Virus record (IMG/VR): IMGVR_UViG_3300010885_014582
Span: 30,014-94,013 of that record
From: a virus
Strand: one strand, 5' to 3'
Length of the DNA stretch: 64,000 nt
The position numbers and the translations under genes were made by a program. Shown piece by piece: positions 21,502-51,392 of the stretch. The notes beneath the pieces were generated by a model. The model saw only the letters and a program-made list of their open reading frames with translations, had not been told where the DNA came from and did no database searches. Positions within the stretch are counted from its first letter, which is position 1. The number at the start of each line of letters is the position of its first letter.

Positions 21502-22170
21502 CTACTTTTTTGTGGTTGGTGGAGGCTGTAATTGACTACCAGCACCAGTAAAGATGAATGTTCCTTGACCCGCTGGAACTACTGCTTTTTTACGACCACG
21601 ACCACGGGAGAATCTTTGTGTTTCTGTTGTAGCACCAGTAACTACTTCTGTACCGACAGGTGCTTCTGAAGTAGTGTATCGCTCTGCTTCACCTGGGTCT
21701 AACTCAACATTTCCACCAGCCCTTTTTAAAACATCAGGATGTGTGGGGTTATATTCTGTAGTAAATGTTTCAATATTGTAGATACCCATTTGGTTTCCAC
21801 CAACAGCGGAAGTTCGTGCTAAGCGATTACTGCGTGGGGTGTCTTTAAATACACGAGAAACATCTTGAAAGATGTGAGGCTTACCTGATTCGTCAGTATC
21901 CGCCCACATACCGAGTGCACGGTTAGGACGACCCGTTAGTTTTGCGTGATTTTCTGGTGTATGCATATAACGCATTACATCAGTAACACCAAAGTCATCT
22001 GTTGGCACACGCTCTTCATGACCAGGTAGAGATACAGAAGTACCAGAAGTTGGTGATTTTCCAGAAGCAAAGGTGGTTGATCCACCATTTGCAAGAGTGT
22101 CAGCAACTAATTTATGTGGGTCAATTCCTGGGTATAGAAATTCACCATTATCAAATGTCTTTTCTGACAT
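21502..22170 (-). CDS. Hypothetical protein (candidate internal virion protein)
   Basis: Full ORF coupled to its neighbours, in the head module. Confidence 0.6.
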   Translation of the reverse strand: MSEKTFDNGEFLYPGIDPHKLVADTLANGGSTTFASGKSPTSGTSVSLPGHEERVPTDDFGVTDVMRYMHTPENHAKLTGRPNRALGMWADTDESGKPHIFQDVSRVFKDTPRSNRLARTSAVGGNQMGIYNIETFTTEYNPTHPDVLKRAGGNVELDPGEAERYTTSEAPVGTEVVTGATTETQRFSRGRGRKKAVVPAGQGTFIFTGAGSQLQPPPTTKK

Positions 22171-22502
22171 CAGGCACCAGCCTTAGGAGCCGCCTTCTTA
22201 GCAGGAGCCGCCTTCTTAGCAGGGGCTTTTTTCTTTGCTACTGCAACAGTCAATTCTTCAACAACTTCAGGAAGTTCTACGGAAGCCTTGGCTAGGAAGT
22301 TAGCAGTTCCCTTGTCACCAACGAGGGTGCTGGCATAAGCAAGACCTGTAATAACGAGTGGCATAATTGCAGCCTGTGCGCCTGGATCAATATTTGCCTT
22401 AGCAAGGAAATAAGAGAGTGCGCCGACAGCGGCACCCTTGAGAGTCTGGTCTGCGACCTGTTGGTTCTTTGTAGCCATGAATGCTCCTAGTAGAAGTGAC
22501 AC
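22170..22502 (-). CDS. Membrane protein with Lys/Ala/Pro histone-like tail
   Basis: Two hydrophobic helices, then KKAPAKKAAPAKKAAPK; the true start may be the ATG of MATKNQ. Confidence 0.65.
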   Translation of the reverse strand: MSLLLGAFMATKNQQVADQTLKGAAVGALSYFLAKANIDPGAQAAIMPLVITGLAYASTLVGDKGTANFLAKASVELPEVVEELTVAVAKKKAPAKKAAPAKKAAPKAGA

Positions 22503-22511
22503 TCAATGATA

Positions 22512-23126
22512 CTATTTTTTAGAATCTCGTTCTTGCATAAAGGATTGGAAGGGTGCTCCCGTGTATGGATCAAACTTACTAGCCACGGTAATTGCCTTAT
22601 TTGCAACGGTTTTAGCCTGCTGTGGTGTCAACTGTTTACCTACCGCAAGGGTGTGTAAAGCGCCCAAAGCGTAAGAGGAACCTGTACCTACAGCGTAAAT
22701 ACCATTGCTATCGCTAGTCCAAGAGTAGTCACCCTCAAGAATATAGATAGTCCCATGGACAACTACAATGATGGTTGACCCTTGTTCAGCAATATGTTCT
22801 TTGTCATCTTTTGCTGAGGAATAACCCTGCTCGTCAAAACAAGACCTAAGAGAAGGTATGAACTGACGGGTAATGAACTGATCAAGTTTCTTACCAAGAG
22901 TATTGGCAGGTGGTATTGGTGGAACAAACACATGCTGAAGGATGTTGATTGCTCGAACATCTCCAGCAGCGCCCATGATGTACTTACCATTAGCGGCAAT
23001 CTTGGATGTTCCAGCCCCAAGGGTAGTTACCTGATATGCCGACCCTGAGTCGTCAAATGAGGCAATACGACTATCTGTGCAAAGTACCGCATAGTTGTCA
23101 CCTTGGATACCCACAATAGTTGTCAT
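22512..23126 (-). CDS. HslV / proteasome beta-type Ntn protease
   Basis: Start reassigned to MTTIVG (N-terminal Thr nucleophile, TAATG coupling); DSR, GAAGD, AVGTGSSYALGAL, DPYTG. Confidence 0.88.
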   Translation of the reverse strand: MTTIVGIQGDNYAVLCTDSRIASFDDSGSAYQVTTLGAGTSKIAANGKYIMGAAGDVRAINILQHVFVPPIPPANTLGKKLDQFITRQFIPSLRSCFDEQGYSSAKDDKEHIAEQGSTIIVVVHGTIYILEGDYSWTSDSNGIYAVGTGSSYALGALHTLAVGKQLTPQQAKTVANKAITVASKFDPYTGAPFQSFMQERDSKK

Positions 23127-24289
23127 TAGGCGGTGTATTCCTTGTTGTGGTACATCGCCCAACCATCTCGGATGGGGATCATCTCAAGGTTGAATTCGGC
23201 ATCACCATCTTTGTAGTTGACTACACAGAGACCCTGTTGCCAGTTCTCAGTGATTGTCATCGGGCGACCGTCAAGGTCGATACCACCTTTAGTAGATGGT
23301 ACAGCGCCATCAACACGAGCAAGGCAACCAGCAGAAGCCGCAAGGATGGTCTTACGACCGTCATAGTCTTCACGGGTTACTTCTGCCCACTCACGGCGGT
23401 GGATGTGTCCATAGAGCACTGAGGTCTTTTCATTAGCCAAATACATGTGTGCTGTAGAGCCGTTGCTTTTAACACGAGTACCATGGATAACTTTCAACTT
23501 CTGATTAATCCAATAGTAACCAGCAGGGTAGCCAGGAACATATTGAATATTGAAATCATTAAAACGACAGAGGAACGGAACCGAAAGTACGGGCCAGTTG
23601 TCTGGTGTGTCTCCACGCCTCAAACCAAAAGAAGCCTTTGCATTATCTAATGTGTAGTTAACAAGACGCTCTTCATGGTTTCCAGCAAGCCAAACAATTT
23701 CAGCGTCAGGAGCAGCAGCACGAATACGAGCCATAAGAATTGTTGCGTAGTCAATTGATTTTTGAGTTGTCAATGCATAGGCAGGACTAAGTCGGTATTT
23801 ACCAAACTCAGCAAAGTCCAAGTTGTCACCATGCATGACTACTTTTTCAGGCTTTAAATCCTTGATCATTGCAACGCAGATGTCGATAGCCCGCTCATCA
23901 TGGATACCTTCAAGTTCACCTAATGCATTACGAAAGTAGCCGATCTGCATGTCAGGTAGGACTACTGCTGTATTCCACTCTGTTTTCTTTGGTGTTTTAG
24001 TTACATTGTTTGTTGGCAATTTAACAGCAGGACCTTGGTTAACAGGATCCCATTCAGGACCTTCTGCCCACTTTGGTGAGAACTGAATAGCCGCAAGGTC
24101 GTGAATTTGTGCTTCACCATCTTGGTCTTTAGTTAGTGATTGATAAAGAGATACACGCTTTACTGAACCAATTTCGTCAATGTCAATCTTCTGACGATCA
24201 AGAATCTCAAGAAGTTTTCCAAGAGCCTTAGCGTTGTTTGCTGGTTTGTCTAGATCATTCGCCAAGTTGCTCACAAGGACACTCCCCAT
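23126..24289 (-). CDS. Calcineurin-like metallophosphoesterase
   Basis: PDMQ, GDNLD, GNHE, HG, GHIHR motifs. Confidence 0.88.
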   Translation of the reverse strand: MGSVLVSNLANDLDKPANNAKALGKLLEILDRQKIDIDEIGSVKRVSLYQSLTKDQDGEAQIHDLAAIQFSPKWAEGPEWDPVNQGPAVKLPTNNVTKTPKKTEWNTAVVLPDMQIGYFRNALGELEGIHDERAIDICVAMIKDLKPEKVVMHGDNLDFAEFGKYRLSPAYALTTQKSIDYATILMARIRAAAPDAEIVWLAGNHEERLVNYTLDNAKASFGLRRGDTPDNWPVLSVPFLCRFNDFNIQYVPGYPAGYYWINQKLKVIHGTRVKSNGSTAHMYLANEKTSVLYGHIHRREWAEVTREDYDGRKTILAASAGCLARVDGAVPSTKGGIDLDGRPMTITENWQQGLCVVNYKDGDAEFNLEMIPIRDGWAMYHNKEYTA

Positions 24290-24548
24290 TTATATGTCGT
24301 TGGATTGTACTGATGCTTACTGAATGTCCATGCTTACGCAAATTCTGTGTAAGCCAAGAAGCGCTGTAAGTCTTTGAACGACCTTGTCCTCTGTCTGCTT
24401 TGATTAAAGCAATTGCTCTGTTAAGAGCCTCAATGTCTTTTGTTTCCATGTCTGACATGATGACGGACAACTTGCAATGAACTTGGTTAGCGTTCAAGCG
24501 AGGTTCCATCAAATCGTCATACAAAGACCTACTGGTCTTATCTGCCAT
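24255..24548 (-). CDS. Hypothetical protein, possible HTH with terminal CxC
   Basis: ASWLTQNLRKHGHSVSISTIQRHINGECPC. Confidence 0.6.
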   Translation of the reverse strand: MADKTSRSLYDDLMEPRLNANQVHCKLSVIMSDMETKDIEALNRAIALIKADRGQGRSKTYSASWLTQNLRKHGHSVSISTIQRHINGECPCEQLGE

Positions 24549-24633
24549 TTTGACTCCCTAGGATATCTATGCAGAGTTCTATTCAAGAACTCACTGTGCA
24601 TCGTATCACGAACTAATGCACGATGCTAAGACT

Positions 24634-24831
24634 TTACTTCTTCAGGTGCCAATCAACATGGTCGTCAAGTCTTTCAGCGACATGGTTAACGCTGTCTTGA
24701 ACTTTATCCAAGCGTTGCATTACTTGACCGTGGTCAAGCGAGTTAGCCTTCTTCATTGATTTAAACTCTTTAATTGAAAAACCAAAGGTAGTAATTACTG
24801 CAACAATAATGGTGGCGATTGCGGGATCCAT
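24634..24831 (-). CDS. Small single-TM coiled-coil protein (holin/lysis-associated-like)
   Basis: N-terminal TM helix, DHG motif, RLDDHVDWH tail. Confidence 0.6.
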   Translation of the reverse strand: MDPAIATIIVAVITTFGFSIKEFKSMKKANSLDHGQVMQRLDKVQDSVNHVAERLDDHVDWHLKK

Positions 24832-24833
24832 AA

Positions 24834-25544
24834 TTAATCTGTAATACCATGGATATTACGCCATCTAACCCAGTTGATTGCTTGAGTTTGCCCAGGGTTT
24901 AAACCTTCTAAACCAGAAACGGTATTTAGTCGGTTGGTTGCAGCCATGTGAGCATCTACAAAAGTGCTGTAACGACCAATTGCGCCAAGTCTTCGATCAC
25001 GACCACCCCAACGCTCGTTGATTGTTGCGTCATGAGCATGTCGATCAATAGTTACCGCAGAACTGTCAGAGGGGTCATTTATATTTCTAAAAAAATGACC
25101 AGTCTTTACCTTCATAGGAAGTAGTTCTTCGGGATCTCGTCCTTCACGAATTTCATTTGCACGCCTAATAGTGTCTTGAGTAATGAATCCGTGGGTGGTT
25201 CCAGTACGACCAATTTCTCTAGCCATTCGAACATTCTCACCCCAAGAGTTTTGAGGACTTGTTATTGCCAAGATTCCTGCACCCTTGCGGATGTCACCAT
25301 TACCTACTTCATGTGCAATTTCTTGAGCCTTGGGATACCACATTTTCCCTGATTCAATCTCATCATCTGAAGCGGTTAGTACACCATGTTCAATGTTTCT
25401 TGTCATGGTTGCAAATTGTTGTGGATGTAAGTTTTTTCCTCTAACACCAATAACATCACCACCTTTTGCAGGAAGTACTCGTCGTGGTGTGTAACTTAGA
25501 CCTTTGTCATCTGGGACAATTAGCCCACTCTCAGTCATAGCCAT
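24834..25544 (-). CDS. HhH DNA-glycosylase-like protein (DUF7178-like, tentative)
   Basis: GKMWY, AITSPQNSWGEN, KTGHFFRNI, VTIDRHA, QAINW. Confidence 0.55.
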   Translation of the reverse strand: MAMTESGLIVPDDKGLSYTPRRVLPAKGGDVIGVRGKNLHPQQFATMTRNIEHGVLTASDDEIESGKMWYPKAQEIAHEVGNGDIRKGAGILAITSPQNSWGENVRMAREIGRTGTTHGFITQDTIRRANEIREGRDPEELLPMKVKTGHFFRNINDPSDSSAVTIDRHAHDATINERWGGRDRRLGAIGRYSTFVDAHMAATNRLNTVSGLEGLNPGQTQAINWVRWRNIHGITD

Positions 25545-26014
25545 CAGTACTGACCGCCAGAATCAGTATTCTCTTTGTTTACTTTACGGTATGAAGAGGT
25601 TCCACGCTGACGCTGACGGCTTGAGTCTGTAGGGCGAGAAGGACGACGGACACCCTCTTGCTTCTTATCAATGTCACTACCTTGTGACTTAAATAGGTCA
25701 AGAGGATCAGTGTAAGGGGTACCAGTTCCAGCCATATGGCGCTCGACATCAATACCACCACGAGGACCCATTGGCGTTGGTACAAACGGACTTGGATAGT
25801 CAGTGCCGTAATCTTGGCGTTGGTAGAACTGCTCGCTCAGAAATTCTTTTTTGCGAGTACGCAAAGCAGGAGAAAAGTTATATGGAACCATTGATCCTGC
25901 GTATACAGGAGCAATTGGCATGCTTTCAGTTGTGGTTGGGCCGCTACTGTCCTGTGCGGGAGCGCTGGCTTCACCTGCGCCTTCTGCACCGTCTGCGCCT
26001 TCTGCGCCTTCCAT
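25544..26014 (-). CDS. Hypothetical low-complexity protein
   Basis: ORF in operon; contains LSEQF. Confidence 0.6.
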   Translation of the reverse strand: MEGAEGADGAEGAGEASAPAQDSSGPTTTESMPIAPVYAGSMVPYNFSPALRTRKKEFLSEQFYQRQDYGTDYPSPFVPTPMGPRGGIDVERHMAGTGTPYTDPLDLFKSQGSDIDKKQEGVRRPSRPTDSSRQRQRGTSSYRKVNKENTDSGGQY

Positions 26015-26019
26015 GAGTA

Positions 26020-26421
26020 CTAGTCGTTAACGACTGTTGGGTTTGGACGGTTCATGTGTCCACCCGTGTTGTACTCATACTCGAAATATGGCATTGAGTC
26101 ACCAGCGACTGAACCCTGTACGAACTCTGAAAGAACCGTAGGAGCCTCAATCCAAGCAGCAGCGCCAACATGGGCACGCTCTTGCATTGTCTGTTCTGCA
26201 TGCTTGTAGAACATCTCTGGGTTGTTATGGTTCATGCGACCACGAGCAGGTGCGGTATCAAGATACGCTCCCTGAGCGAAGTCATTAGGAACATCGGTGT
26301 CTGTGGCGACACCCTCTTCAAAACGAAGAGGTCCTTTGTTACCTGGAATGCTTGGAGCGAAACTGCGCTCAAATACATTTGGCGCCTTTTCTGCGAACTG
26401 TGGGCTTGGTGCTACTGACAC
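26020..26421 (-). CDS. Hypothetical virion-associated protein
   Basis: Strong GGAGG RBS; GPLRFEEGVATDTDVP, ERAHVGAAAW. Confidence 0.7.
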   Translation of the reverse strand: MSVAPSPQFAEKAPNVFERSFAPSIPGNKGPLRFEEGVATDTDVPNDFAQGAYLDTAPARGRMNHNNPEMFYKHAEQTMQERAHVGAAAWIEAPTVLSEFVQGSVAGDSMPYFEYEYNTGGHMNRPNPTVVND

Positions 26422-26482
26422 TATTTACTCCTCCATAAAGGGGTATTGACTTATTTACAAGAATATCATTTTTAAGAGGGTG

Positions 26483-28045
26483 TTATCTGAAAAACGGGCT
26501 AGTTGAGGCTTGAACCTGTGGCATCGTATCCATAACTGTCAAAGCACAAGCAATAGCAAGGCTGTCAGGATAGTCGTCAAAAGCACCACGCTCATTGGGA
26601 GCAGCCGCTAAAAGGTACGGTCCTTTATAGATTTTTTCAAGGTCAGACATTTGTTGGTTAAAGCGCTTCCATGTGCGGGTACGCCTAGCCTTAGAATGTC
26701 CTGGAAGAATTAACTGATCTCTCTGAATTAATTCGGTTAAATGCACCCAGCGCTCGTTCTGAGCCTTTGAATCCGATGAGATGGGCAATACCTCAATATC
26801 AGGCAGTAGAAGCGCCAGACGCTCTGCTACAGCGCCTCCGACGCCCTGTGAGTCCACTCCCACCCTTAGGAGGTCGTAATGTCGCAGGAAATCAATAATA
26901 TGGAAATATTGTGCTTCCCATTCCTCATTGTTAATCTCAAGCCAGTTGAGGACACGGTGTTCATAGAAACCAAATGGGTCTGGATGATCCCAGTCAACCC
27001 ATACAACGGTAACTACTGTGGAGTCATTTGAGCGAGCCACATCGATTCCTGCCACACAGGGTGTACGCCACCATTCTTTAACCAAAGGCATGGACTGGTC
27101 GTACAGACGATCCATACGCTCTTCAGTAACGAACATTCCTTTTTCAAGAATGAACTTATTGCAGTACGACATCTGGAACTCGTCCGAGTCTTCCCCGATG
27201 CGTAACTTCTCTTTAGAGATAAACTTTGAGTAGTTGTCGTTGTACTTTGAGGCAACCCTATGGTCGTACTCAAAGTGAGCCTCACGGAAACGCTTTCCAC
27301 CGTTAGCGGAACGACGCTTGTTGTACTGAATCATACGGTAGAAATAGGATTTCTGACGGTTAGCAGTTCCTGTAAGAGCAATCGATCCGTTGTTGAACGC
27401 CAGCATGGGTTTGATTGACTTAGCGATCATGGTCTCATCGGCTTCCTGAGCCTCATCGATAAGGACGAAGTGGTAAGTCTTAGACTCAATCTTTGCCTTA
27501 GGGTTACATGTCTGCATACGGCAGAGTGATCCAGCATGCTTCAAAGTGATTAGGCGACCACGACCACGGGTACCACCACCTGTTGCCTTGTCATCAATCT
27601 CAGGGTCAAGAAGGAACTGCATAGCGTGGTCACTAGTTAGTTTTGTGACAATACGACTAAATACAGTTTCTGCCTGCTCTTCGGTAGGAGCAAACACGCC
27701 TACCCAAAAACCTCTGTCAAACTTCTCTAACCATGTCGGATAGATGGGTGCCAACTTAGGAAGGATGACCATCATGCCAGCCATAACTGCTGAAAGAACT
27801 TCTGACTTACCTGACTGACGGGTAGCGACCACAGTCAACTCATCACCATCTCCCAGAACTACAGATTCAATAATGCGGTAGGCAATAGGTATCTGGTAGG
27901 GAAAGAACTCAATATCACAGAACTCTTCTGTAAAGATTATAATTCGTTTTACTAGTTGGTCAATAAATTCCGCAGAAGTTTCGTCCAGTTCTTCGGGGTC
28001 ACCAAAGTCTTCCAGTGGTTCGACTAGGTCTTCCTGCTCGATCAT
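26483..28045 (-). CDS. terL: Terminase large subunit
   Basis: Walker A RQSGKS, Walker B LIDEAQ, nuclease GIDVA and DDYPDS. Confidence 0.95.
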   Translation of the reverse strand: MIEQEDLVEPLEDFGDPEELDETSAEFIDQLVKRIIIFTEEFCDIEFFPYQIPIAYRIIESVVLGDGDELTVVATRQSGKSEVLSAVMAGMMVILPKLAPIYPTWLEKFDRGFWVGVFAPTEEQAETVFSRIVTKLTSDHAMQFLLDPEIDDKATGGGTRGRGRLITLKHAGSLCRMQTCNPKAKIESKTYHFVLIDEAQEADETMIAKSIKPMLAFNNGSIALTGTANRQKSYFYRMIQYNKRRSANGGKRFREAHFEYDHRVASKYNDNYSKFISKEKLRIGEDSDEFQMSYCNKFILEKGMFVTEERMDRLYDQSMPLVKEWWRTPCVAGIDVARSNDSTVVTVVWVDWDHPDPFGFYEHRVLNWLEINNEEWEAQYFHIIDFLRHYDLLRVGVDSQGVGGAVAERLALLLPDIEVLPISSDSKAQNERWVHLTELIQRDQLILPGHSKARRTRTWKRFNQQMSDLEKIYKGPYLLAAAPNERGAFDDYPDSLAIACALTVMDTMPQVQASTSPFFR

Positions 28046-28290
28046 GTGACGATGCGGCTCCGTTGTTCATCCCATAAGTCTTTTACAAGATTCATGATTG
28101 TAGTAAATTCGTCTGGGTCACCTTTGTGGAAAGCCCATTTGTCGTAAGCCGCACCTAGTTCCATCAAGCATGAATTAAGCCAACCACGAAGTTGGATATC
28201 ATCCATGTTCTTGATTCGGTCAGGCCGTGGTCGTTCTGGTTGTTTTGCTTCTTTTCTGAATATCATTCCAATTCCCAATTTCTTTGGCAC
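28042..28290 (-). CDS. Hypothetical protein (start uncertain)
   Basis: Overlaps the terL start (ATGA). Confidence 0.55.
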   Translation of the reverse strand: MPKKLGIGMIFRKEAKQPERPRPDRIKNMDDIQLRGWLNSCLMELGAAYDKWAFHKGDPDEFTTIMNLVKDLWDEQRSRIVT

Positions 28291-28681
28291 TGATGTCTAG
28301 GTACTTACCTTGAATGGCAGAGAGCGTACCTGCTGTATCATCAAGATTTTGCTTATGGCATAAACCAATCTGGATACTGCGCTTAAATACAGCAACATAG
28401 ATTCCTGCGCCTTTTCTCCATGGAGCGCTCAACTCATGCATAGTACCAAACCCAGCAGACAACTGGCGAGGGTCATGTCGGGTAATCCAATACACAGGAC
28501 CAATACCTTGGACGATGTCTGTAGTTCCCCTAAACACTAAATATGCGTAAGTAAGAAAAGGAATAATAAATGAGGGGTGTAGAACCACCGTCATGTACAG
28601 ATATACCAACATAAAAACTAAGGGTGCATACCCCAGTATGTGTTGTGCCTTCTTATAGATCGTCCGTGTTTGCTGTGTCAT
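28220..28681 (-). CDS. Hypothetical membrane protein
   Basis: Two N-terminal TM segments. Confidence 0.55.
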   Translation of the reverse strand: MTQQTRTIYKKAQHILGYAPLVFMLVYLYMTVVLHPSFIIPFLTYAYLVFRGTTDIVQGIGPVYWITRHDPRQLSAGFGTMHELSAPWRKGAGIYVAVFKRSIQIGLCHKQNLDDTAGTLSAIQGKYLDISAKEIGNWNDIQKRSKTTRTTTA

Positions 28682-29234
28682 CTCGTGAACCTATTCTGCT
28701 GTATTTGTAGTTGTTAAGGAATTGATTAATAAATCTGCCCTTAGACTCACTGTTTGCAAAGTTGTTGTAAACGCTTTCTGGAACATGTGAGTATTTATAG
28801 ATGTCATTAGCATGACTTCCATTAAGGTGTGGTTGAAATCTAACATACACAGTACCCAATGTGTTTGTCCTTGTAGCCACTCCTGCTTTTTCAATCAGGT
28901 ATGTGCGGTCAGGAGAGTGCGGAACAAACTTGTGTGACCTAACCCGTGTACTGCTACCAGGACCTCTTCCATAGTTATCCTTTGGAGGCTTTGCATCGAT
29001 GACTTCCTGTGTGGCGTAATCAATGGGTATCCCACTATTCTCACCAATTGTGTCGGGGGTTTTTCGTGCACCCCAAGGTTGACCAAACATGTTGAATTCA
29101 GAAAGTTCATTTCCTTGTTCAGAGGAAGGTGCTTCTGTAGGGATCTGACGCATATTCCTGTTGGTGTTAATGCGACCTTCTTCAGCAAGTATGTCATTAA
29201 GTGACTTGCCCAGTCTTCTTTTTGGTGTTGCCAT
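28653..29234 (-). CDS. KTSC-domain protein
   Basis: GTVYVRF...YKYSHVPESVYNNF..SESKGRFIN. Confidence 0.75.
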   Translation of the reverse strand: MATPKRRLGKSLNDILAEEGRINTNRNMRQIPTEAPSSEQGNELSEFNMFGQPWGARKTPDTIGENSGIPIDYATQEVIDAKPPKDNYGRGPGSSTRVRSHKFVPHSPDRTYLIEKAGVATRTNTLGTVYVRFQPHLNGSHANDIYKYSHVPESVYNNFANSESKGRFINQFLNNYKYSRIGSRDDTANTDDL

Positions 29235-29761
29235 TATTCAGGCTTAGGAAGTGCCCGCCACGCTGCTTCAAACTTTGCGGCGTCTTTTGCCATCTCTGGA
29301 GAAAGTTCTAAATGCAACCAAAAACCGCCGAATGAACCAGCATTATCGGACTCACTAAAAATCTTCACCCCTTGTAAATTTTCGCCTCTTGAACAGCGGA
29401 AGCCTCTTCCATAACCTTTGTTTTTGTCTTTAGGATTTGCGTCAAAGGCGTAGTCGTGAATTTCTTCAATTCCTAATTCTTTTGTGTACTTGATAAACCA
29501 GTCCCACATGGCAACGCCAACCTTGCGGTCGTCATACCCAATATCGACCGCAGCCCCAGTGGAATGGACTGAAAGCCATTTTTCCATGCCAGGGTCGCCA
29601 ATCTTCTTACCCTCGGTATGAGAGTTCCTCATCAATCTGGCGGAATAAATCCCCAGGTTCTTAGTTTTCCATCTGGCCGCACAAAGCGCAGCGAGTTTTT
29701 CTGTGCCAGGCTGTGCCTTTTTTCCGTCAAAACTGGGGTAATAAGAATATTTTCTGGGCAT
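29234..29761 (-). CDS. Zinc peptidase of the M15/extensin-like clan; candidate endolysin
   Basis: SVHSTGAAVD...WLHLE metal-binding motif. Confidence 0.7.
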   Translation of the reverse strand: MPRKYSYYPSFDGKKAQPGTEKLAALCAARWKTKNLGIYSARLMRNSHTEGKKIGDPGMEKWLSVHSTGAAVDIGYDDRKVGVAMWDWFIKYTKELGIEEIHDYAFDANPKDKNKGYGRGFRCSRGENLQGVKIFSESDNAGSFGGFWLHLELSPEMAKDAAKFEAAWRALPKPE

Positions 29762-29769
29762 AATGTTCC

Positions 29770-31211: not shown

Positions 31212-31352
31212 TTACTCTTCTGTGTCAGGCGTTTCGCCCATTGGGGTTGCTTGCATACGCTGTAATGCTGCCTTGTAAGCGATATTTTCCAAGGTAAGGC
31301 GCTTTACTTCGTCAAGTAGTCCGTTGATGAGGTCATCAGTTTGTAATTCCAT
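31212..31352 (-). CDS. Small coiled-coil protein (46 aa)
   Basis: Hand-translated MELQTDDLINGLLDEVKRLTLENIAYKAAL... Confidence 0.55.
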   Translation of the reverse strand: MELQTDDLINGLLDEVKRLTLENIAYKAALQRMQATPMGETPDTEE

Positions 31353-42759: not shown

Positions 42760-42792
42760 AATAAACCTCTACTAAGGTAGCACGAGGCTACC

Positions 42793-44019: not shown

Positions 44020-44027
44020 TTAAATCC

Positions 44028-44429
44028 TTACGAGAAGTAGGCTTTTCCGCCAAAACTGGACGAAAATGCGATGGAAACTTGATTCACTGATATATATGAT
44101 ACATCACCTTCGACCACTGACCCGCCGCTGTCAATCACAGACACAGCGGGAAAGAAACCCAAACCATGAGTCACGATCCAAGTAGATGCAGAAACACTTT
44201 GGGTATGGACATACTGACCTGCCATTGGTAAAACAAAATTAATTGTTTGAGCGGGGGCAACCCCTGTAAGGGTCACGGCTGGGCTTATACCAGTTGCTAC
44301 AGTGCCTACCGCTAGGATGTTTGGTGGACCAGCAACACCAGGATCACTGACCTCAATTACTGAGTTTCGTGATGGAGAGGAGACAACTACCGACTTGCGG
44401 TTCTCCCTAGTGACTTCTACAGTACTCAT
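44028..44429 (-). CDS. Structural protein
   Basis: YVHTQSVSASTWIVTHGLGFFPAVSV...FGGKAYFS. Confidence 0.7.
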   Translation of the reverse strand: MSTVEVTRENRKSVVVSSPSRNSVIEVSDPGVAGPPNILAVGTVATGISPAVTLTGVAPAQTINFVLPMAGQYVHTQSVSASTWIVTHGLGFFPAVSVIDSGGSVVEGDVSYISVNQVSIAFSSSFGGKAYFS

Positions 44430-45136
44430 ACAGGTGGTGCTGAGACCGCTGGTTCAACGACTAAAGTTCCTGATGACAAACAATCCCAATCCCCTGCTGA
44501 GTCTTGTACAAAGAGATCGTAAGAATATACACCTGAAGCCACATTATTTGTATTAGAAATGTGCAACTCTAGGGTTGCTCCAGTTGCTGGAGCCAAATAA
44601 CCACGCTTGTTGGCTGGAGTCAAGCCAATTACCGTTGACTCAGATGGTTTAGGTGAATACCAGCGTAAATCCACAACAGTGGTGCCAGTAGCGGTCTTAG
44701 CCTGCATGAATGCGCTTTGGACAGCAATAACGACCCCATCTGCGTCTTTCCATGTAAAGGTACGGCGATAGTCCGTGTATTGCTTGTAACGGATTTCCAT
44801 AGCGTCTGAGTCCTCCAGAGGGGTGATATTGTTCAAAGCGGATACAGAAATTGTACCCTGTGATACAGGCTGCTGAACTCCATTGATAGTGGCAAGAACA
44901 TCATAGAACAGGTCACCCAATGGAAGATCTTGTGTCTCTTCTGCTGTCAATGATAGGGCAATACCATTTTCTGATGTCAAAGTAGTGGTTAACTCAGCAA
45001 CCGTGATTGCCCCTGTACGAACATAGGCACGAGCATCAGTAGGGCGTTGTAGGTGATGCGTTCTCTTATCTTTTACGATAATCAAGCGCTCCCATGGTAA
45101 ACCCCGAACTAGGGTGTAATTAACTGTGCGAACCAT
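44426..45136 (-). CDS. Structural protein with tandem BppU-like beta-sandwich domains
   Basis: Two repeats, each ending in YD(V/L)...G. Confidence 0.6.
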   Translation of the reverse strand: MVRTVNYTLVRGLPWERLIIVKDKRTHHLQRPTDARAYVRTGAITVAELTTTLTSENGIALSLTAEETQDLPLGDLFYDVLATINGVQQPVSQGTISVSALNNITPLEDSDAMEIRYKQYTDYRRTFTWKDADGVVIAVQSAFMQAKTATGTTVVDLRWYSPKPSESTVIGLTPANKRGYLAPATGATLELHISNTNNVASGVYSYDLFVQDSAGDWDCLSSGTLVVEPAVSAPPV

Positions 45137-45162
45137 AACTACTATTCTACTTCAGTATGGGT

Positions 45163-45327
45163 TTACTCGCCGCCTTTAAACAGAGCAGATATGAGGTGAA
45201 CTGTTAGTGCAGCACCACTTATCCAGAGACCATAGGTTTGTACTTTGCCAGACAAAGTAATTAAAACTAGTCCTGTACCAGCGATGGTAAAAGCCAAACC
45301 TTGCAGTTCTTCAAAAAATCTATTCAT
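45163..45327 (-). CDS. Small 2-TM membrane protein (54 aa)
   Basis: Hand-translated MNRFFEELQGLAFTIAGTGLVLITLSG...; TAATG-coupled to the Thr-rich gene. Confidence 0.7.
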   Translation of the reverse strand: MNRFFEELQGLAFTIAGTGLVLITLSGKVQTYGLWISGAALTVHLISALFKGGE

Positions 45328-46625
45328 TATTTCTTTCTACGGGATTTATTGTCGGATGACTGGGAACCGCTTGAAGACGAAGAAACTGGAACTACTGGTG
45401 CCATAAATAATACCCCAGTTGCGGCTACCAATACTTTTCTCTGCCCCACATTGATCTTCGAGCCAATCGGCACATACTTATTAAACTTGCCCCCAAAGAT
45501 ATTAATCTGTTCTTCAAAAGCAGCCTTCACTTCCTCAGGGGCGTTTTGGACTGCTTCAATCAGTTGATCCGCTTGTGCGTCGGACAAATTAGATACTTCA
45601 ACGGCAGCAAAGATTTCAGTTGCTTGTTCTGATGTAACCGACTGGAGGACCTCTGGGTTAGTGGCAAGGGCGGTTGCTTCATCAGCACTGACGCCCTGCT
45701 CGATGATGTTATCCACAGCCGCTGCGATCTCAGATTGTGGGAGGTTGTTAATGGCACCCAATAAAGCGGTCACTTCTGGGTCAACTTGTACAAGTTCTTG
45801 TACAGGTGGGACTGTAGTGGTTGTGGTAGTCGTAGGAAGCACCGTAGAGGTCGTAGAGGTCGTAGAGGTACTTGTAGTGGTCGTGGTGGGCACAGGAGCC
45901 AAAGTTGTCGTGGTAGTGCTTGTGGTTCCTGTCACAGGTGATATCGTGGTAGTAGTCTCAGGAACTGTCGTGGAGGTAGTCGATGTTGTTGTGGGTAATA
46001 CTGTTGTTGTCGGCGGCTCTGTTGTCGTTGTCGTTGTCGAAGAAGTGGTGGTAGTTGATGTCGTGGTTGTGGTTGGTGCCAGTGTTGTTGTGGTTGTGGA
46101 TGTTGTGGAAGTCGTGGTAGATGTCGTCGTGGAGGATGTGGTTGTGGTTGGTGCCAGCGTTGATGTTGTCGTGGGTGGCACGGTCGTTTGAGGAACAGTT
46201 GTTTGAGGAATGGTAGATGTGGTCTGAGTAGACCCAACACCATTGAAACCTAGTTCGTACCGTAAGTTCCATCCCCCATTTGTACGCCAAGCATTGGGGT
46301 CACCACAACAAATACCAGCCCTCAGTCTGTAACGACCAGCAGGTACTTCAATTGAAATGTACGACTGCAAGCCAATAGAGTCGTCATTGGCTGCAAGTTG
46401 CGTTCCTGCTTCGTTGTATAGCCACAACATAGGATCTGAGTTGTACCCAGTGATCATATAGGTTTGGGCAATAAACTGTGTTGTCTCACTGTAATCAAAC
46501 CAAACATCTGTTGGCTCTGTGATTATTAGGTTTTCGGCTTTAGCGGGGGAAGACGGATAAAGACCCAAAAATGTGAGAACTACCCACAAAAAACAACTTG
46601 TAACCCGCACACGGGATTTACGCAT
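45327..46625 (-). CDS. Secreted, membrane-anchored Thr-rich (mucin-like) protein with PPC-like domain
   Basis: Signal peptide ending AKA; SDPMLWLY..NDD...GRYRLR; long poly-Thr stalk; C-terminal hydrophobic anchor with basic tail. Confidence 0.8.
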   Translation of the reverse strand: MRKSRVRVTSCFLWVVLTFLGLYPSSPAKAENLIITEPTDVWFDYSETTQFIAQTYMITGYNSDPMLWLYNEAGTQLAANDDSIGLQSYISIEVPAGRYRLRAGICCGDPNAWRTNGGWNLRYELGFNGVGSTQTTSTIPQTTVPQTTVPPTTTSTLAPTTTTSSTTTSTTTSTTSTTTTTLAPTTTTTSTTTTSSTTTTTTEPPTTTVLPTTTSTTSTTVPETTTTISPVTGTTSTTTTTLAPVPTTTTTSTSTTSTTSTVLPTTTTTTTVPPVQELVQVDPEVTALLGAINNLPQSEIAAAVDNIIEQGVSADEATALATNPEVLQSVTSEQATEIFAAVEVSNLSDAQADQLIEAVQNAPEEVKAAFEEQINIFGGKFNKYVPIGSKINVGQRKVLVAATGVLFMAPVVPVSSSSSGSQSSDNKSRRKK

Positions 46626-46640
46626 TAATTAAGTTTATCA

Positions 46641-47087
46641 CTACTTGTATTTAACGCCAGTTGGACCTAGTCGTACTCCACTCATACCTGTTGATACATC
46701 TTCACCTGTATCTTCATCAGTCATTGACCCTGGGCGGATTTTTAGTGTTTTATCAGCAGGTTCGATTGGTACTGGATGAATGGTACCTTCAGCAAAAGTA
46801 TTTCGTGTTTTAGCACCTGTAGAACTAGAGAGGTGATTTTCAAGTTCCCTTTTGTTTACTTTCATTTTTACATCTTTTAAGTAGATGTCATCTGAATGAC
46901 CAACTACTTTTCCAGAAACAAGAACACTGTAGATAGGGCGACCAAGTGCTGTAGTTGCAGGGGTGTGCATATGAACTTGTGCTTTTGTACCTACAAGATC
47001 ACCAAGACCTATCTCACTAAGGATGTTTACAGAAACACCACGAACTTTGTGTGTTTCTTTAAACTGAGGTCCATCAGGTATTGGCAT
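46641..47087 (-). CDS. Hypothetical protein with N-terminal GPQF motif
   Basis: Own leaderless promoter; MPIPDGPQF. Confidence 0.7.
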   Translation of the reverse strand: MPIPDGPQFKETHKVRGVSVNILSEIGLGDLVGTKAQVHMHTPATTALGRPIYSVLVSGKVVGHSDDIYLKDVKMKVNKRELENHLSSSTGAKTRNTFAEGTIHPVPIEPADKTLKIRPGSMTDEDTGEDVSTGMSGVRLGPTGVKYK

Positions 47088-47164
47088 GATTCAATATTAC
47101 CAGAGACACGAAGACGGACCGCCCTCAAGCAGCCCGCCTCGGTGGGTAAGAACCTCATTAATAA

Positions 47165-47196
47165 TTATACACACATGTGAATAAACATGTGGATAA
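47165..47196. promoter_or_regulatory. Cluster of three DnaA-box consensus sites (TTATNCACA)
   Basis: TTATACACA (+, 47165-47173), TTATTCACA (-, 47176-47184), TTATCCACA (-, 47188-47196). Confidence 0.7.
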
Positions 47197-47592
47197 CTAC
47201 TCAGTATCAGGATGTCCTGAGTACATACCTTCTGTGCCCTCAACATGCTCGTCATGGTTTGGCTCATATGCAGTACGGTTGTAATACTTATCTTCAAACT
47301 GTGAAGCCAAGTGTGTAGCGGCTGGGTGGATTGTCAAACCCCAGTTAATAAATGATTTAGGATAACGGTCATATACATGTTGCATTAATGCTTTAGCGTG
47401 ACCTTTTCCTTCACGATGGCTTTTTAAATAGTCAATATCAATTTGGGAGTTGCCGTCTTCATTGGTGTAATTATCAAAAGAAACACGAGCAAGGTTTCCA
47501 CTATCCATGTTGGATAATGTCAGGGAATGTGAACCTTTATCAAGTTTGCTATGGGTTACATGGAATTGACTACTCAAGTTATTGCGATTCAT
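47197..47592 (-). CDS. GNAT-family acetyltransferase
   Basis: IDYLKSHREGKGHAKALMQHVY (acetyl-CoA motif A); N-terminal NLSSQF. Confidence 0.7.
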   Translation of the reverse strand: MNRNNLSSQFHVTHSKLDKGSHSLTLSNMDSGNLARVSFDNYTNEDGNSQIDIDYLKSHREGKGHAKALMQHVYDRYPKSFINWGLTIHPAATHLASQFEDKYYNRTAYEPNHDEHVEGTEGMYSGHPDTE

Positions 47593-47723
47593 CAATAAAC
47601 TCCCTCACAACAAGAGTCCCTAGAGCCACAAGATTCGCACCGATAATGAGCGTGTTCAGGGCGCATTTTACCGCCACACCAAACACATTGCTCAGACAGG
47701 TCACAGGACTTTTCATCTGTCAT
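47592..47723 (-). CDS. Small zinc-ribbon protein (43 aa)
   Basis: Hand-translated CVWCGGKMRPEHAHYRCESCGSRDSCCEG. Confidence 0.65.
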   Translation of the reverse strand: MTDEKSCDLSEQCVWCGGKMRPEHAHYRCESCGSRDSCCEGVY

Positions 47724-47875
47724 GAAACTACTAGGACAACATCCCAAGAACTAGCCGCAATTTGGATAGCCTTGGAGACAGTTACATTCTTGTAACCACT
47801 GGCACGGGCAAGGTTTGTTGCAATCTTAATTGCGTCAGACATAAGGACAGTGCTAACGGGGTAAGTAACGAACAT
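47720..47875 (-). CDS. Small hypothetical protein (51 aa)
   Basis: Hand-translated MFVTYPVSTV...; ATGA overlap with the next gene. Confidence 0.5.
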   Translation of the reverse strand: MFVTYPVSTVLMSDAIKIATNLARASGYKNVTVSKAIQIAASSWDVVLVVS

Positions 47876-47909
47876 GAGTATTTTCTATCACACTTATTGT
47901 GTAATAAAT

Positions 47910-48140
47910 TTAGTACTGTGTTCCTGGGTTTGCCACTGCTTGAGAGATCGAGCGGTGCAGTTCACACTGACCACATGGGCAATCTCCTGCGATAGCACCG
48001 AGAAAGGCCGCTTGGTTGCGCTCTGCACGAGTAAAGCGCCCACCGTTCCATCCACCTTTGCTGTCTGCGGGGATGGCTGTGAGTGAGGAACCACTTTCGT
48101 CACTTCCAGACTTTGAACTTGATTTTCCTAAAATAGCCAT
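47910..48140 (-). CDS. Hypothetical protein
   Basis: TAAACT-6nt-ATG leaderless start; CPCGQC. Confidence 0.6.
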   Translation of the reverse strand: MAILGKSSSKSGSDESGSSLTAIPADSKGGWNGGRFTRAERNQAAFLGAIAGDCPCGQCELHRSISQAVANPGTQY

Positions 48141-48179
48141 GGTCTTAGTTTACCTCATCTAAAGATATGAGTTTTAAAA

Positions 48180-48407
48180 TCAGTTCTTTTTATCTACTTT
48201 GTTGAAGACATCGTTGATCTCTTCAATGCTGAGTTTTCCGTCATCCATGTAGGCTCGTGCGAGACCTTCAACAACAAAACTGACTCCACCGATACCAGCC
48301 ATCAACATGGCCTTCCATAGTGGTATTCCTGCGATAGCGCCTGCTCCAACCACTGAAAGACCAGTGGCAGCAAAGGCAGCCAGGATTCGGAGCAAAATCT
48401 GTTTCAT
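48180..48407 (-). CDS. Holin-like 2-TM membrane protein
   Basis: Two TM helices, DDGKLSIEEIN tail. Confidence 0.6.
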   Translation of the reverse strand: MKQILLRILAAFAATGLSVVGAGAIAGIPLWKAMLMAGIGGVSFVVEGLARAYMDDGKLSIEEINDVFNKVDKKN

Positions 48408-48967
48408 TATTTTCTCTTACGACGCTTCACATACTGAACAGCACCACCATCACCAATTTGTGATTTTGGAACCATCCATGAAATACTTCCCACATCTTCA
48501 CGACGGTTTCGGTATGGGGTAACAATTCCTTTTTCAGCAACACCTTTGGTGTCAGGTGCGGTTTCTTCAAACAACCCAGGTTGTTTTCCTGACATACGCT
48601 CTTGGAAATGGGCATACAACTCGCCAGCCTCTCCACCCATGACTTCATTGGTGTCACCTTTTTGGGCGCTAATTTCTGCTACTTCACTATCTATTGCATG
48701 ATCCATTTTTAATATTGAAGGAGATTCACCAAAAGTAACTGGTGACACTGATGGGTGATTAACATTAATCCTGTACTCATGGATATTGTTTCTCATGGGC
48801 CAATCTTGCGCTGATTCCCTTGTACCCATATGGAGGATGTCTGGGTGAACATTGTCTCCTTCTTTGAAACTATGAAACACAGGGTGTGCATGTTGAAGGT
48901 GTGGAGGGGTCGCTTCATTAGAAGAATGGAACACACTTATAAATTGAGGTCCAGAAGGCTTTGGCAT
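48407..48967 (-). CDS. ADP-ribosyltransferase-like protein (ART-PolyVal-like)
   Basis: VFHSS...HMGT...IHEY...YRNRREDVGSISWMV; paralog of 50551..51021. Confidence 0.6.
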   Translation of the reverse strand: MPKPSGPQFISVFHSSNEATPPHLQHAHPVFHSFKEGDNVHPDILHMGTRESAQDWPMRNNIHEYRINVNHPSVSPVTFGESPSILKMDHAIDSEVAEISAQKGDTNEVMGGEAGELYAHFQERMSGKQPGLFEETAPDTKGVAEKGIVTPYRNRREDVGSISWMVPKSQIGDGGAVQYVKRRKRK

Positions 48968-48981
48968 CCTTCAATTATACT

Positions 48982-49155
48982 TCAACCGCCGTTGCGGTAA
49001 TAACCTTTGCCTACAAGGTTGAATGTAGGGGCGCTAAAGACTTTCTTCATTTCTTCTGAGCATGCTGTACAGATAAGAATAGGCTCTCTGTCATGGATTG
49101 ACCTATCTTCTTCATAGAAGTGGTCATTAGGGCACTTGTATTGGTATATAGGCAT
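48982..49155 (-). CDS. FmdB-family zinc ribbon protein
   Basis: MPIYQYKC..DH...CTAC...KVFSAP....GKGYY. Confidence 0.85.
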   Translation of the reverse strand: MPIYQYKCPNDHFYEEDRSIHDREPILICTACSEEMKKVFSAPTFNLVGKGYYRNGG

Positions 49156-49165
49156 ATTGCCTACT

Positions 49166-49897
49166 CTACACAAAACCTTCCATACCTGGGAGAAATTGGT
49201 TACTTAAACCTTTAGGTGTCACAGGGGTGCTACTGCGCTTCCTGCTATTGCGTAAAGACTGTCGGACATCATTCTGTGCAACCATGACTTCACCTTGTGT
49301 CACTGGTTGCATTTTCTCATGTGCATAGTCAATCTCGTTTAGTCCTGCCCAGCGCTCTACTTTGTCAATGTCATTTTTGGGTTCTGCCTCTGTATTTAAG
49401 GGATTTGTCTGGACCAATCCCTTACTGGCAGCATTTTTAACTAATTTACTGCTATGTGGAGATAAATCAGAGTCTGCCATTAAAACTTCAGGTTTATGCT
49501 TATTTTTAGCAAGTTGTGCCATTGTCAAGGCTGTGGATGACATAGACGGGTCTGCAAACATACGGGTTATGTGTGTAGTTGAAGGGATTGTGTCAAAAAG
49601 AGTATCTTGTTGGAAATAAGGATGATTTGTGTTTCTTCCAGCGGCAAAAGAATCGCTGTCAGGGTCAGTAGCCCAGTTTTCTGTATATAACTTGTCTGCT
49701 TTCTTATGAGCATGTCCAGAAAAGCCACTTGGCATAGTATTATCGAAGTTCGGTAAGAATTTTGGTGGGTGATAGGTAGCACCTAACTCAGCCACTTTCC
49801 GATTACCTTGCTCATCTGACTCGCCAAAAGCAATGTAGGACTGGTATACCCTGCCATCAGGGGCTTTTGCGTCGTTACTGTAGTAATCAGCCATCAC
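49166..49897 (-). CDS. Divergent GNAT-like protein
   Basis: ITRMFADPSM...DLSPHSSKLV resembles a GNAT core; C-terminal GLSNQF. Confidence 0.45.
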   Translation of the reverse strand: MMADYYSNDAKAPDGRVYQSYIAFGESDEQGNRKVAELGATYHPPKFLPNFDNTMPSGFSGHAHKKADKLYTENWATDPDSDSFAAGRNTNHPYFQQDTLFDTIPSTTHITRMFADPSMSSTALTMAQLAKNKHKPEVLMADSDLSPHSSKLVKNAASKGLVQTNPLNTEAEPKNDIDKVERWAGLNEIDYAHEKMQPVTQGEVMVAQNDVRQSLRNSRKRSSTPVTPKGLSNQFLPGMEGFV

Positions 49898-49956
49898 CAA
49901 TAATACCTTAAATGGTCAAACGCAAATTTTTTTACTTCTTACTTGTCATGACGGCG

Positions 49957-50541
49957 CTAAGAGCCACTACCAGCCCTCTTTACACCAGCGTTCTTCTTAG
50001 GATTACGACTAAACATGACCTTCATATCCGCACGACCTGGGTTTTTCTCGTTGATGTTGTCAACAATGTTCATAGTTGCCTCATGCATAGCCTTACCCAT
50101 ATTAATTGTGGATGAAGGGTCGGTAGTGCGATCCAAATGGTTGACCATCTCTGCTGCAATACCACGCTGTTGGTGGTCTGGGTGAACATTCATGAAGCCA
50201 ATATTGGTATCAGCCGCATGGTAGGTCCTGTCTTGCTCGATATAAGACCCATCTGGCTGTTCTACATTGTATATGAACCCTCTTTTAGTCATAGGTTCAC
50301 GATAAAAGTCTGTATAACCGATTAAACCTTGTGTTCCTGTCTCACTGGGTCGTACATAACCCTTTTCAATGGTGAATTTACGGGTCTCATTCGGGTCAAT
50401 CACCTGTAGACGGCGTGGTTCTCCATAGGATTTGAGTGGGTGGTCATATGCATGGTCTTGAGGCATAGGAAATTCCATGTAGTGGCGACCTACATGGTCT
50501 GTAAATTGAGCACCAAGGTGTGGGATTGGGTTATCAGCCAT
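49957..50541 (-). CDS. GNAT-family acetyltransferase
   Basis: IGFMNVHPDHQQRGIAAEMV motif A; N-terminal HLGAQF. Confidence 0.8.
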   Translation of the reverse strand: MADNPIPHLGAQFTDHVGRHYMEFPMPQDHAYDHPLKSYGEPRRLQVIDPNETRKFTIEKGYVRPSETGTQGLIGYTDFYREPMTKRGFIYNVEQPDGSYIEQDRTYHAADTNIGFMNVHPDHQQRGIAAEMVNHLDRTTDPSSTINMGKAMHEATMNIVDNINEKNPGRADMKVMFSRNPKKNAGVKRAGSGS

Positions 50542-50550
50542 ATAACTAGT

Positions 50551-51021
50551 TTACTTCTTAAATGGCCCGCCAGCCATTACAGATATAGTACCCATAAATG
50601 CCTTTTCTGAGTCAGCATCCGCATTGAGTAGGAATTGTTGTGTGTTCAAATGCTTAACATGATTACCAACGAATGCAGCAGGAACCACATAAGAAGTTGA
50701 ACCTTTGTCTTCACGCTCATTTTTGTAAGGGTAAATTCGTGTTTGACTATGTTCAGGGACTGTTCTGCTCTCATCTTCTGAAAACATGGGGTCTTCCCAC
50801 ACTCTCCTAGATGTTGGAGCAGAATCAGATATCTCATAAGCATGTATTTGACCGATACCCACTTGGGCTTTACCCGTACCTTCGGGGTCCCAGTCCACAC
50901 CATGCTCAATTTCATCGTCTAGACGGTCATTGGCGGCTTTGTGCGTGCCTGCGTGGAAGGGGTAACCATGTTCATGTGGTGCTTGACCACTCAAAGTGCC
51001 GTGGTAAACAATCTTTCCCAT
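50551..51021 (-). CDS. ADP-ribosyltransferase-like protein (ART-PolyVal-like)
   Basis: VYHGT...HAGT..AA..R...YKNEREDKGSTSYVV. Confidence 0.65.
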   Translation of the reverse strand: MGKIVYHGTLSGQAPHEHGYPFHAGTHKAANDRLDDEIEHGVDWDPEGTGKAQVGIGQIHAYEISDSAPTSRRVWEDPMFSEDESRTVPEHSQTRIYPYKNEREDKGSTSYVVPAAFVGNHVKHLNTQQFLLNADADSEKAFMGTISVMAGGPFKK

Positions 51022-51026
51022 AACTA

Positions 51027-51392
51027 CTAGTTTACTCTACGGGTATAGGCTCTACGAATAACACGATAACCCTCAGGAGAGGTGTGTTGTCTCAACGAAC
51101 CGTCACGAAACTTGGTCTCTGTCCATTCAGCGGTTTCTGGGTTGACTGGCTCTACTTGATATACCCGTGTGCGGGCATCAGGACGGTCATTCATTATCTT
51201 GGAGACACCACCGTAGTACTTAGCGGTCTCTAGGTCATCGGTGGCATAGGCAAGGTTAGGGTCATTCTTGCTCTTGGCACCCCAGTTGCGTGTTGCACCT
51301 GTCTGTGAGGGAGGGAGAATCAGGTCACCAGTCTTGAACTTACGGCTTGTCCCATGAAAGAGGGTCTCATTGACATGTTCCGATGCTGACAT
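51027..51392 (-). CDS. Arr-like (rifampin ADP-ribosyltransferase fold) protein
   Basis: LFHGT...GDLILP...AYAT...A..Y...RVYQVEP...SPEGYRV. Confidence 0.75.
   Translation of the reverse strand: MSASEHVNETLFHGTSRKFKTGDLILPPSQTGATRNWGAKSKNDPNLAYATDDLETAKYYGGVSKIMNDRPDARTRVYQVEPVNPETAEWTETKFRDGSLRQHTSPEGYRVIRRAYTRRVN

Follow-up and report, generated by a model that had tools for sequence, protein, structure and literature searches.

Phage T4 carries its capsid targeting sequence (CTS), MKTYQEFIAE, on the internal proteins IPI–III and on Alt, and the internal proteins of the T-even phages are encoded at a hypervariable locus. A comparable arrangement is seen in a 64,000-nucleotide stretch of viral DNA (the window), comprising bases 30014–94013 of the complete 94-kb IMG/VR virus record IMGVR_UViG_3300010885_014582, and in its relatives, with a short peptide ending in Gln-Phe (the QF tag) present on otherwise unrelated small proteins. 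As with the T4 CTS, the peptide comprises about ten residues at the very start of its bearers, the content of the gene island encoding them changes quickly between relatives, and the tagged set includes an ADP-ribosyltransferase (ART). The QF tag differs in that its sequence is unrelated to the CTS, it lacks the L/I-x-E cleavage motif and occurs in a phage without a gp21-type prohead protease, in some proteins it follows a domain or an N-terminal extension instead of opening the chain, and its bearers are predicted gene products.

A further point of comparison is provided by proteins that bind the β sliding clamp through Q-L-[SD]-L-F, through Q-φ-x-[LM]-[FL] or Q-φ-x-[LM]-x-[FL] or, in the case of Hda, through an N-terminal Q-L-S-L-P-L. 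These motifs resemble the QF tag in being short, in combining Gln with an aromatic or aliphatic residue, and in occurring at either terminus of unrelated proteins, with textbook-like QLSLF, QLNLFD, and QFKLF peptides present in the island proteins and sometimes fused to the tag. The common tag, however, is conserved upstream of the Gln and stops at the Phe, without the L-F two to three residues further on.

The QF tag also resembles the leader, M-L-K-L-N-L-Q-F-F, that Prp removes, by a cut before the following Ala, from L27 and from proteins of Staphylococcus phage 80alpha. Wall et al. reportedly described in 2015 how this L27-type leader (L-N-L-Q-F-F, cut by Prp before Ala) is copied on the 80alpha capsid and scaffold proteins; the L27 leader is not known from actinobacteria. 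Shared with this system are an N-terminal L-N-x-Q-F core about 9–14 residues from the start, and its use by a phage on its own proteins. In contrast to 80alpha, the phage has no Prp gene (no match to Peptidase_Prp, PF04327, in the complete genome at E ≤ 1), the leader is missing from the head proteins, and the cargo consists of accessory enzymes.

The cargo-loading peptides of encapsulins are likewise short, portable, uncleaved, and found at either terminus, and a peptide of this kind could address enzymes into an HK97-fold shell; unlike the QF tag, they follow a Gly/Ser/Leu-rich consensus, and they are known only for encapsulins and not for tailed phages. Finally, Iyer, Burroughs, Anand, de Souza, and Aravind are said to have described in 2017 the polyvalent proteins of phages and conjugative elements. 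These contain the same kinds of module as the tagged set (ART, acetyltransferase, and nuclease-like), thought in their case to act on the recipient cell at entry. In the island, by contrast, all are encoded by stand-alone genes with their own start and often their own promoter, and no fused form was found.

Enrichment and form of the QF peptide

In the window, QF occurs within residues 2–14 of 8 of the 154 open reading frames (ORFs), compared with 3.0 expected (p = 0.01), and as a start enrichment it ranks only 8th among 400 dipeptides. As the enrichment in this one genome is modest, relatives were collected for comparison, with 3 loci gathered via an ART-like protein, 52 via a conserved 236-residue neighbour encoded at 44426–45136, and 3 whole genomes in addition. 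In the 1484 ORFs that these 52 loci contain, QF is sharply concentrated at residues 6–12, with 103 occurrences there against about 2.4 expected per position. Following clustering of the proteins by their bodies, minus the first and last 18 residues, and with each family counted once, [LIVMF]-[NSG]-x(1,2)-Q-F is found N-terminally (in the first ~20 residues) in 26 independent families, compared with 3.15 expected from the internal frequency of the motif (p = 1e-15). G-x-Q-F occurs in the N-terminal zone of 7 families (0.48 expected), and QF within residues 4–18 in 41 families. A reading of the window made from its letters and predicted ORFs (the sequence-only reading) had proposed the motif as a signal that would fail if it were not enriched over background; both its enrichment and its terminal bias are evident in these figures.

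The consensus is roughly [H/N/D/E]-[L/I/V/M]-[N/S/G]-x(1-2)-Q-F, usually ending 7–13 residues from the start. Long flavours (M-A-A-H-E-N-L-S-G-Q-F and M-S-A-S-E-H-L-x-x-Q-F) and short flavours (M-x-L-N-P-x-Q-F, or more loosely M-x-L-N-x-x-Q-F, and M-P-x-P-x-G-P-Q-F) are present, with Q-L, Q-W, and L-F as rare endings. Inside a family, conservation is no higher over the four residues that precede QF than over the twelve that follow, and the constant part of the tag consists of Q-F and a loose hydrophobic/small-polar pair upstream. The codons of the leader vary in their third positions, with the Gln of the tag encoded by CAG in 53 cases and CAA in 34, and the Phe by TTT in 59 and TTC in 28. This variation identifies the tag as a peptide rather than a DNA element, and rules out a nucleotide-level element or recombination junction. 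Tags are found behind Shine-Dalgarno-led and leaderless starts alike, which rules out a requirement of leaderless translation as their origin.

The tag is also modular, with orthologues exchanging leader flavours, or having none, whilst QF stays, and with one family bearing the motif behind its domain and not in front. To judge from these sequence comparisons, the QF peptide is clearly a selected, portable label on dozens of unrelated small enzymes, and one that is very probably read by a single common partner. That part of the sequence-only reading which saw a portable tag on interchangeable, unrelated modifying enzymes is thus sustained by its presence in more than 26 independent families, by selection at the peptide level, and by the swapping of leaders between orthologues.

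Lineage, gene island, and clamp-like ends

The genome is of the myovirus type, with collagen-like fibres, a large terminase, a portal of the SPP1 type (19794–21488), and a scaffold gene (18937–19740). Its major capsid protein (17823–18902) is 58% identical to the counterparts in the Streptomyces phages BRock and LuckySocke. The N-terminal region of this protein (18780–18902, minus strand) opens with ~28 residues that differ among relatives and are unalignable with the Streptomyces phage proteins, and a conserved L-S-P-A-I-Q-T-I-W comes after them. The tag bearers form a lineage of uncultured freshwater (lake) actinophages. When the region and two tagged proteins were compared with 50,697 phage records by megablast and tblastn, no cultured relative was returned, and a tag-like start is present in 1 of the 111 LuckySocke ORFs (91 kb of the 114.6-kb genome examined). 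A degenerate DNA pattern for MAAHENLxxQF returned only 4 loci in IMG/VR, all apparently of the same lineage. Among the relatives, the tag is retained at locus GC contents from 44% to 61%.

Tagged genes are found almost exclusively within the 10 kb upstream of the 236-residue gene (44426–45136, minus strand), on either strand, and this gene bounds the island in the 52 related loci for which it served as anchor. The suggestion that tail and early proteins lack the motif at their termini is mostly right. All of the peptides listed in the sequence-only reading were located at the genes given for them, every one of which lies on the minus strand, and the block of ART and GNAT genes at 46.6–51.9 kb opens a long leftward arm and adjoins a divergent junction with a GC-rich rightward early arm. 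Island content varies among the 52 loci, even between close relatives. In one related phage contig, position 46634 is joined directly to 47097, with exactly the gene at 46641–47087 gone, and the segment 50541–51908 is replaced; this is cassette-wise gain and loss. The island also contains ~590 bases without a convincing gene (47592–48180), inside which lies a Cys-rich 51-residue ORF (47592–47747), with other small Cys-rich ORFs at the matching site in relatives.

Many tagged genes are preceded by TA-n-A-n-T, six bases, and then ATG, a −10 element that puts the predicted transcript start at the start codon. This design, (G)TA[AT]A[AC]T-N6-ATG without a Shine-Dalgarno sequence, is found on the minus strand at 48968–48985, 50542–50560, 51393–51410, 51931–51950, and 46626–46645, and in relatives G002, G003, and G004, and predicts leaderless transcripts. 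It precedes 27% of tagged families, compared with 6% of others, and in relatives it is also found before the 236-residue gene and a conserved structural gene of ~270 residues. With a start design of their own, the cassettes are autonomous, without their timing being fixed thereby, and its presence before conserved structural genes makes co-expression with virion genes possible. A simple sigma-70 and terminator scan of 44–53.5 kb found sites no commoner than in shuffles, and two metatranscriptome runs contained related sequence only as assembled contigs, with a flat depth over both arms that is uninformative on timing, starts, and strand.

Some proteins of the same set also carry peptides fitting the published clamp-binding consensus, Q-φ-x-[LM]-[FL] (bioRxiv 10.64898/2026.09.19.751633). 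In a 49-member family, the leader runs directly into Q-[LFMY]-x-[LM]-F, as in HENLSGQLSMF, which fits this consensus. C-termini in the family of the protein encoded at 49166–49900 read QFLPGM, QLTLPGI or, in a GC-rich relative, NPNQFKLF; further island families of relatives end in QLSLF, QLKLFED, QLELPL, or QLNLFD, and one family alternates QPTLPGM with QLNLFD. Such clamp-consensus C-terminal peptides (QLSLF, QLKLFED, QLELPL, QLNLFD, QFKLF, and Q-x-x-LPG[FM]) are found on unrelated accessory proteins encoded at L017:2280–3985, L026:2389–4080, and L080:5217–5996, at 46251–46487 and 47005–47565 of G004 (L069), and at 95986–97302 of G003 (L065). Only these separate C-terminal motifs and the one 49-member family conform to the consensus. 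The common N-terminal tag does not: polar residues predominate after Q-F, and a hand count of 83 non-redundant tags found a hydrophobic residue at the fourth position in about 33%, no more than background. Counted by family, the clamp-like pattern shows no terminal enrichment. No phage sliding clamp gene was found. The clamp-like ends constitute a putative second label, distinct from the tag, on some members of the gene set, and the proteins with such ends, at least, would be intended to act at DNA inside a cell.

Candidate readers and destinations

The QF peptide would, as we understand it, serve as a short linear address or docking label, read by one common partner, on a fast-turnover set of small accessory enzymes that includes ART-like, GNAT-like, and DUF7178 proteins and many proteins of unknown fold. 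The likeliest destination would be the assembling head, via the portal, the scaffold, or the inner capsid face, from which the enzymes would travel with the DNA into the next cell, like the T4 internal proteins and Alt, with the tag left unclipped because the lineage has no conserved head protease. Delivery through the head had been proposed in the sequence-only reading together with the portable tag; the tag has stood, and a reader belonging to the virion can be offered tentatively as the best single guess, with docking on a hub in the infected cell nearly as likely. What commends capsid loading, by analogy and at that same tentative level, is that the island resembles the internal-protein locus of T-even phages, that the cargo is of fitting kinds, and that the tag has so far been confined to one phage lineage with one head module. 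The parallels with the T-even locus are that island content differs between close relatives, that a whole cassette is cleanly absent from one relative, and that the island has a fixed place beside a conserved gene. The cargo kinds (Arr-like ART, ART-like fold, and GNAT) are those thought to be delivered with invading DNA.

Several observations weigh against capsid loading or are neutral to it. No T4-type prohead protease was found, nor a conserved one between the portal and capsid genes, and the portal, scaffold, and major capsid protein have neither a conserved tag nor a shared cleavage motif, so that the tag is not seen as a maturation site common to these proteins. Tagged proteins are neither unusually basic nor richer in basic tails (5 of 24, compared with 16 of 147; p = 0.18), and basic DNA-binding tails or a high isoelectric point, as a mark of internal proteins, are accordingly not significant. 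A search for longer homologues of the DUF7178 cargo, itself weak evidence, found no fused polyvalent or MuF forms. The cassettes give no sign of late timing: they adjoin the divergent early region, stand in either orientation, and often have host-type −10 leaderless starts. Retention of the tag over 44–61% GC suits a conserved host reader equally well. Furthermore, the tag may be part of the folded domain in some of its bearers. In the AlphaFold2 model of the ART-like protein encoded at 50551–51021, HLNTQQF lies in the last β-strand (residues 122–131), followed by a disordered tail, and in the model of the Arr-like protein encoded at 51027–51392, L-F-H-G-T forms strand 1, with residues 1–10 at a low mean predicted local distance difference test (pLDDT) score of 62. 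From these models the final aromatic residue can belong to the fold, and in the ART families, where the final F (or L-F) begins strand 1 or joins the last strand, it may not be free to dock.

In a second reading nothing is packaged, and the tag would dock the enzymes on a conserved hub in the infected cell. The hub could be a host protein, for example the β sliding clamp, or one of the phage's own replication or transcription proteins, and enzymes for early host takeover or anti-defence would thereby reach the DNA or the machinery that they modify. This somewhat unlikely yet serious alternative is consistent with free-standing genes on either strand that adjoin the divergent early region and often have TAnAnT-N6-ATG leaderless starts, with the clamp-binding-like peptides borne by the same proteins, with the lack of a clamp gene in the phage, and with the range of GC over which the tag is kept. 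However, most N-terminal tags misfit the clamp motif, their conserved part lies upstream of the Gln, where clamp-binding motifs need none, the clamp-like pattern shows no family-level terminal enrichment, and no candidate hub was identified. A scheme that joins the two destinations appears more doubtful than either. In it, an uncleaved, encapsulin-like peptide of 8–12 residues (core L-[SN]-x-Q-F) would load ARTs, acetyltransferases, and unknown enzymes into the HK97-fold capsid for co-injection, and some of these would then home to the host clamp through a second, C-terminal peptide, Q-L-x-L-F, so that delivery would depend on two labels.

It is improbable that the tag is a cleavable propeptide or protease site, at which a host or phage protease cuts after the aromatic residue and thereby activates or times the enzymes. 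M-x-L-N-x-x-Q-F and L-S-x-Q-F do resemble the L27/80alpha leader, the last residue is always aromatic or large and hydrophobic (F; rarely L, W, M, or Y), like a chymotrypsin- or proteasome-type P1, and some tags sit behind extensions of 15–60 residues, often after basic residues. An HslV/proteasome-like peptidase is, moreover, encoded in the head module, between the terminase and the portal (22512–23162, minus strand; phrog_1040, E = 7e-27; Pfam Proteasome, E = 2.6e-8), and contains T-T-I-V-G after an internal Met, as at the HslV active-site threonine. This gene is present in G001, G002, G004, and G010 but missing from the complete relatives G003, G007, and G009, whose loci bear tags, which rules out the peptidase as an obligate reader; it is the sole protease gene of the head module, accessory and dispensable in the lineage. 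The lack of a Prp match, the lack of the motif in the capsid, scaffold, and portal proteins, and the removal of part of strand 1 that a cut after F would entail in the ART families likewise argue against cleavage. Slightly less probable still is a common handle for one phage chaperone or inhibitor, whose task would be to keep toxic enzymes inactive or in solution while they are inside the producing cell. Toxin-like proteins (ART and GNAT) are frequent among the cargos, a changing set could be served by one partner if all its members had the same handle, and the catalytic H-G-T strand directly adjoins the tag in some models; this proposal is purely inferential, however, and no conserved small partner gene was identified beside the island. 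That the peptide has no function, arising by chance, from composition, from a requirement of leaderless translation, or by convergent structure, is very hard to credit. The modest dipeptide enrichment in the window alone, the placement of the motif within a β-strand in two modelled families, and the excess of leaderless starts among tagged families would suit it, but they are set against a family-level enrichment of p ~ 1e-15, freely varying synonymous codons, tags behind both kinds of start, and unrelated folds headed by the same peptide.

No published description of the QF tag was found in the literature searched, and a paper on freshwater actinophages mentions ART toxins and not the tag. 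New here are the family-level statistics, the verdicts on individual instances, the leaderless cassette design, the ruling out of both the HslV-like peptidase and Prp as reader, the location of the final aromatic residue in the structure models, and the second, clamp-like label. If one reader does recognise the peptide, a few residues would suffice to enrol any enzyme in the phage accessory arsenal, which would explain the fast exchange of effectors in these abundant lake phages. Were the destination the capsid, the tag would give phages other than the T4-like and jumbo groups their first capsid-addressing code, one that acts without proteolysis, and protein loading into phage particles would gain a simple handle; were it a host hub, the most abundant freshwater bacteria would have a point of attack not recognised so far. 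Whichever holds, the tag can serve as a practical marker when effector genes are sought in uncultured actinophage genomes.

Individual tagged proteins

Of the nine instances named in the sequence-only reading, six are supported by the relatives, one by its pattern, one is doubtful, and one is probably not a tag. At the left of the ART/GNAT block, a 148-residue protein (46641–47087) starts with MPIPDGPQF (47061–47087, minus strand; PDGPQF at residues 4–9), with orthologues starting MAGTENSEQF or MASRRDLNGIQF, and one without a leader. The adjacent GNAT-like protein of 131 residues (47197–47592), assigned by a weak Pfam match only, starts with MNRNNLSSQF (47563–47592, minus strand; NLSSQF at residues 5–10), and 4 of 4 orthologues are tagged (NLSSQF, NLGGQF, and HLSQQF). 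The ART-like protein of 186 residues (48407–48967), preceded by TATAAT-N6-ATG, starts with MPKPSGPQF (48941–48967, minus strand; PSGPQF at residues 4–9), and its orthologues bear MPKPTGPQF or a DHLNLDLF variant. All three tags are upheld, as is the C-terminal composite of GLSNQF and LPGMEGFV (49169–49210, minus strand; GLSNQF at residues 231–236 of 244) in the protein encoded at 49166–49900, with L-P-G-[MI] invariant and [LM]-S-x-Q-F variably present among 23 unique aligned members of the family.

The GNAT protein encoded at 49957–50541, which gives weak GNAT matches and whose gene follows TAAACT-N6-ATG, starts with MADNPIPHLGAQF (50503–50541, minus strand; HLGAQF at residues 8–13), and as the set contains no orthologue, this tag stands by its pattern only. 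In the ART-like protein encoded at 50551–51021, HLNTQQF (50632–50652, minus strand; residues 124–130 of 156) comes after the domain and is upheld, with [HY]-L-[GNS]-x-Q(Q)F retained in 7 of 7 paralogues; a fold search with its model gave weak ART-superfamily matches only (RES toxin, pertussis toxin S1, and PARP; E 0.06–0.3). The Arr-like ART encoded at 51027–51392 (Pfam Arr-ms, E = 1.5e-5; TAAACT-N6-ATG ahead of the gene) starts with MSASEHVNETLF (51357–51392, minus strand). Its HVNETLF, put forward as a weaker variant, is a true one, since M-x-A-S-[ED]-H-[LIV]-N-E-x-L-F-HGT opens 47 of 49 homologues, down to 44% identity. FDNGEF, the other proposed variant, in the protein encoded from 21502, is without support.

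The remaining instances lie near the terminase. In the protein encoded at 24834–25544 (Pfam DUF7178, E = 5.6e-45, starting at residue 41), an internal NLHPQQF (25413–25433, minus strand; residues 38–44) opens the domain and is upheld for this clade only, with L-H-P-x-Q-F exclusive to the clade and the site variable in distant relatives. MSVAPSPQF (26395–26421, minus strand; APSPQF at residues 4–9), on the protein encoded just after the terminase (26020–26421), is marginal, as QF is retained in G002 and G003 but the L-[NS] part is lacking from the motif, one locus has P-M-F, and the motif is missing from the LuckySocke counterpart, gp71. FLSEQF (25826–25843, minus strand; internal, residues 58–63 of the protein encoded at 25544–26014) is present in a near-identical orthologue and lost in the 43%-identical G002 orthologue. 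The location of the DUF7178 gene and of a metallophosphoesterase gene (23126–24289), both on the minus strand between the terminase and the portal, is an unusual site for enzymes; in LuckySocke the corresponding interval is occupied by five small hypothetical genes.

No informative family emerged when the island proteins, together with ten larger proteins from relatives that bear the tag or a C-terminal version of it, were scanned against Pfam and PHROG. Outside the window, an array of about 21 small genes in the same genome (G000 8003–13800, 16–22 kb before the window) contains two more tagged starts, MTLNNNQF and MPTFRGQRQF, together with other repeated N-terminal classes.

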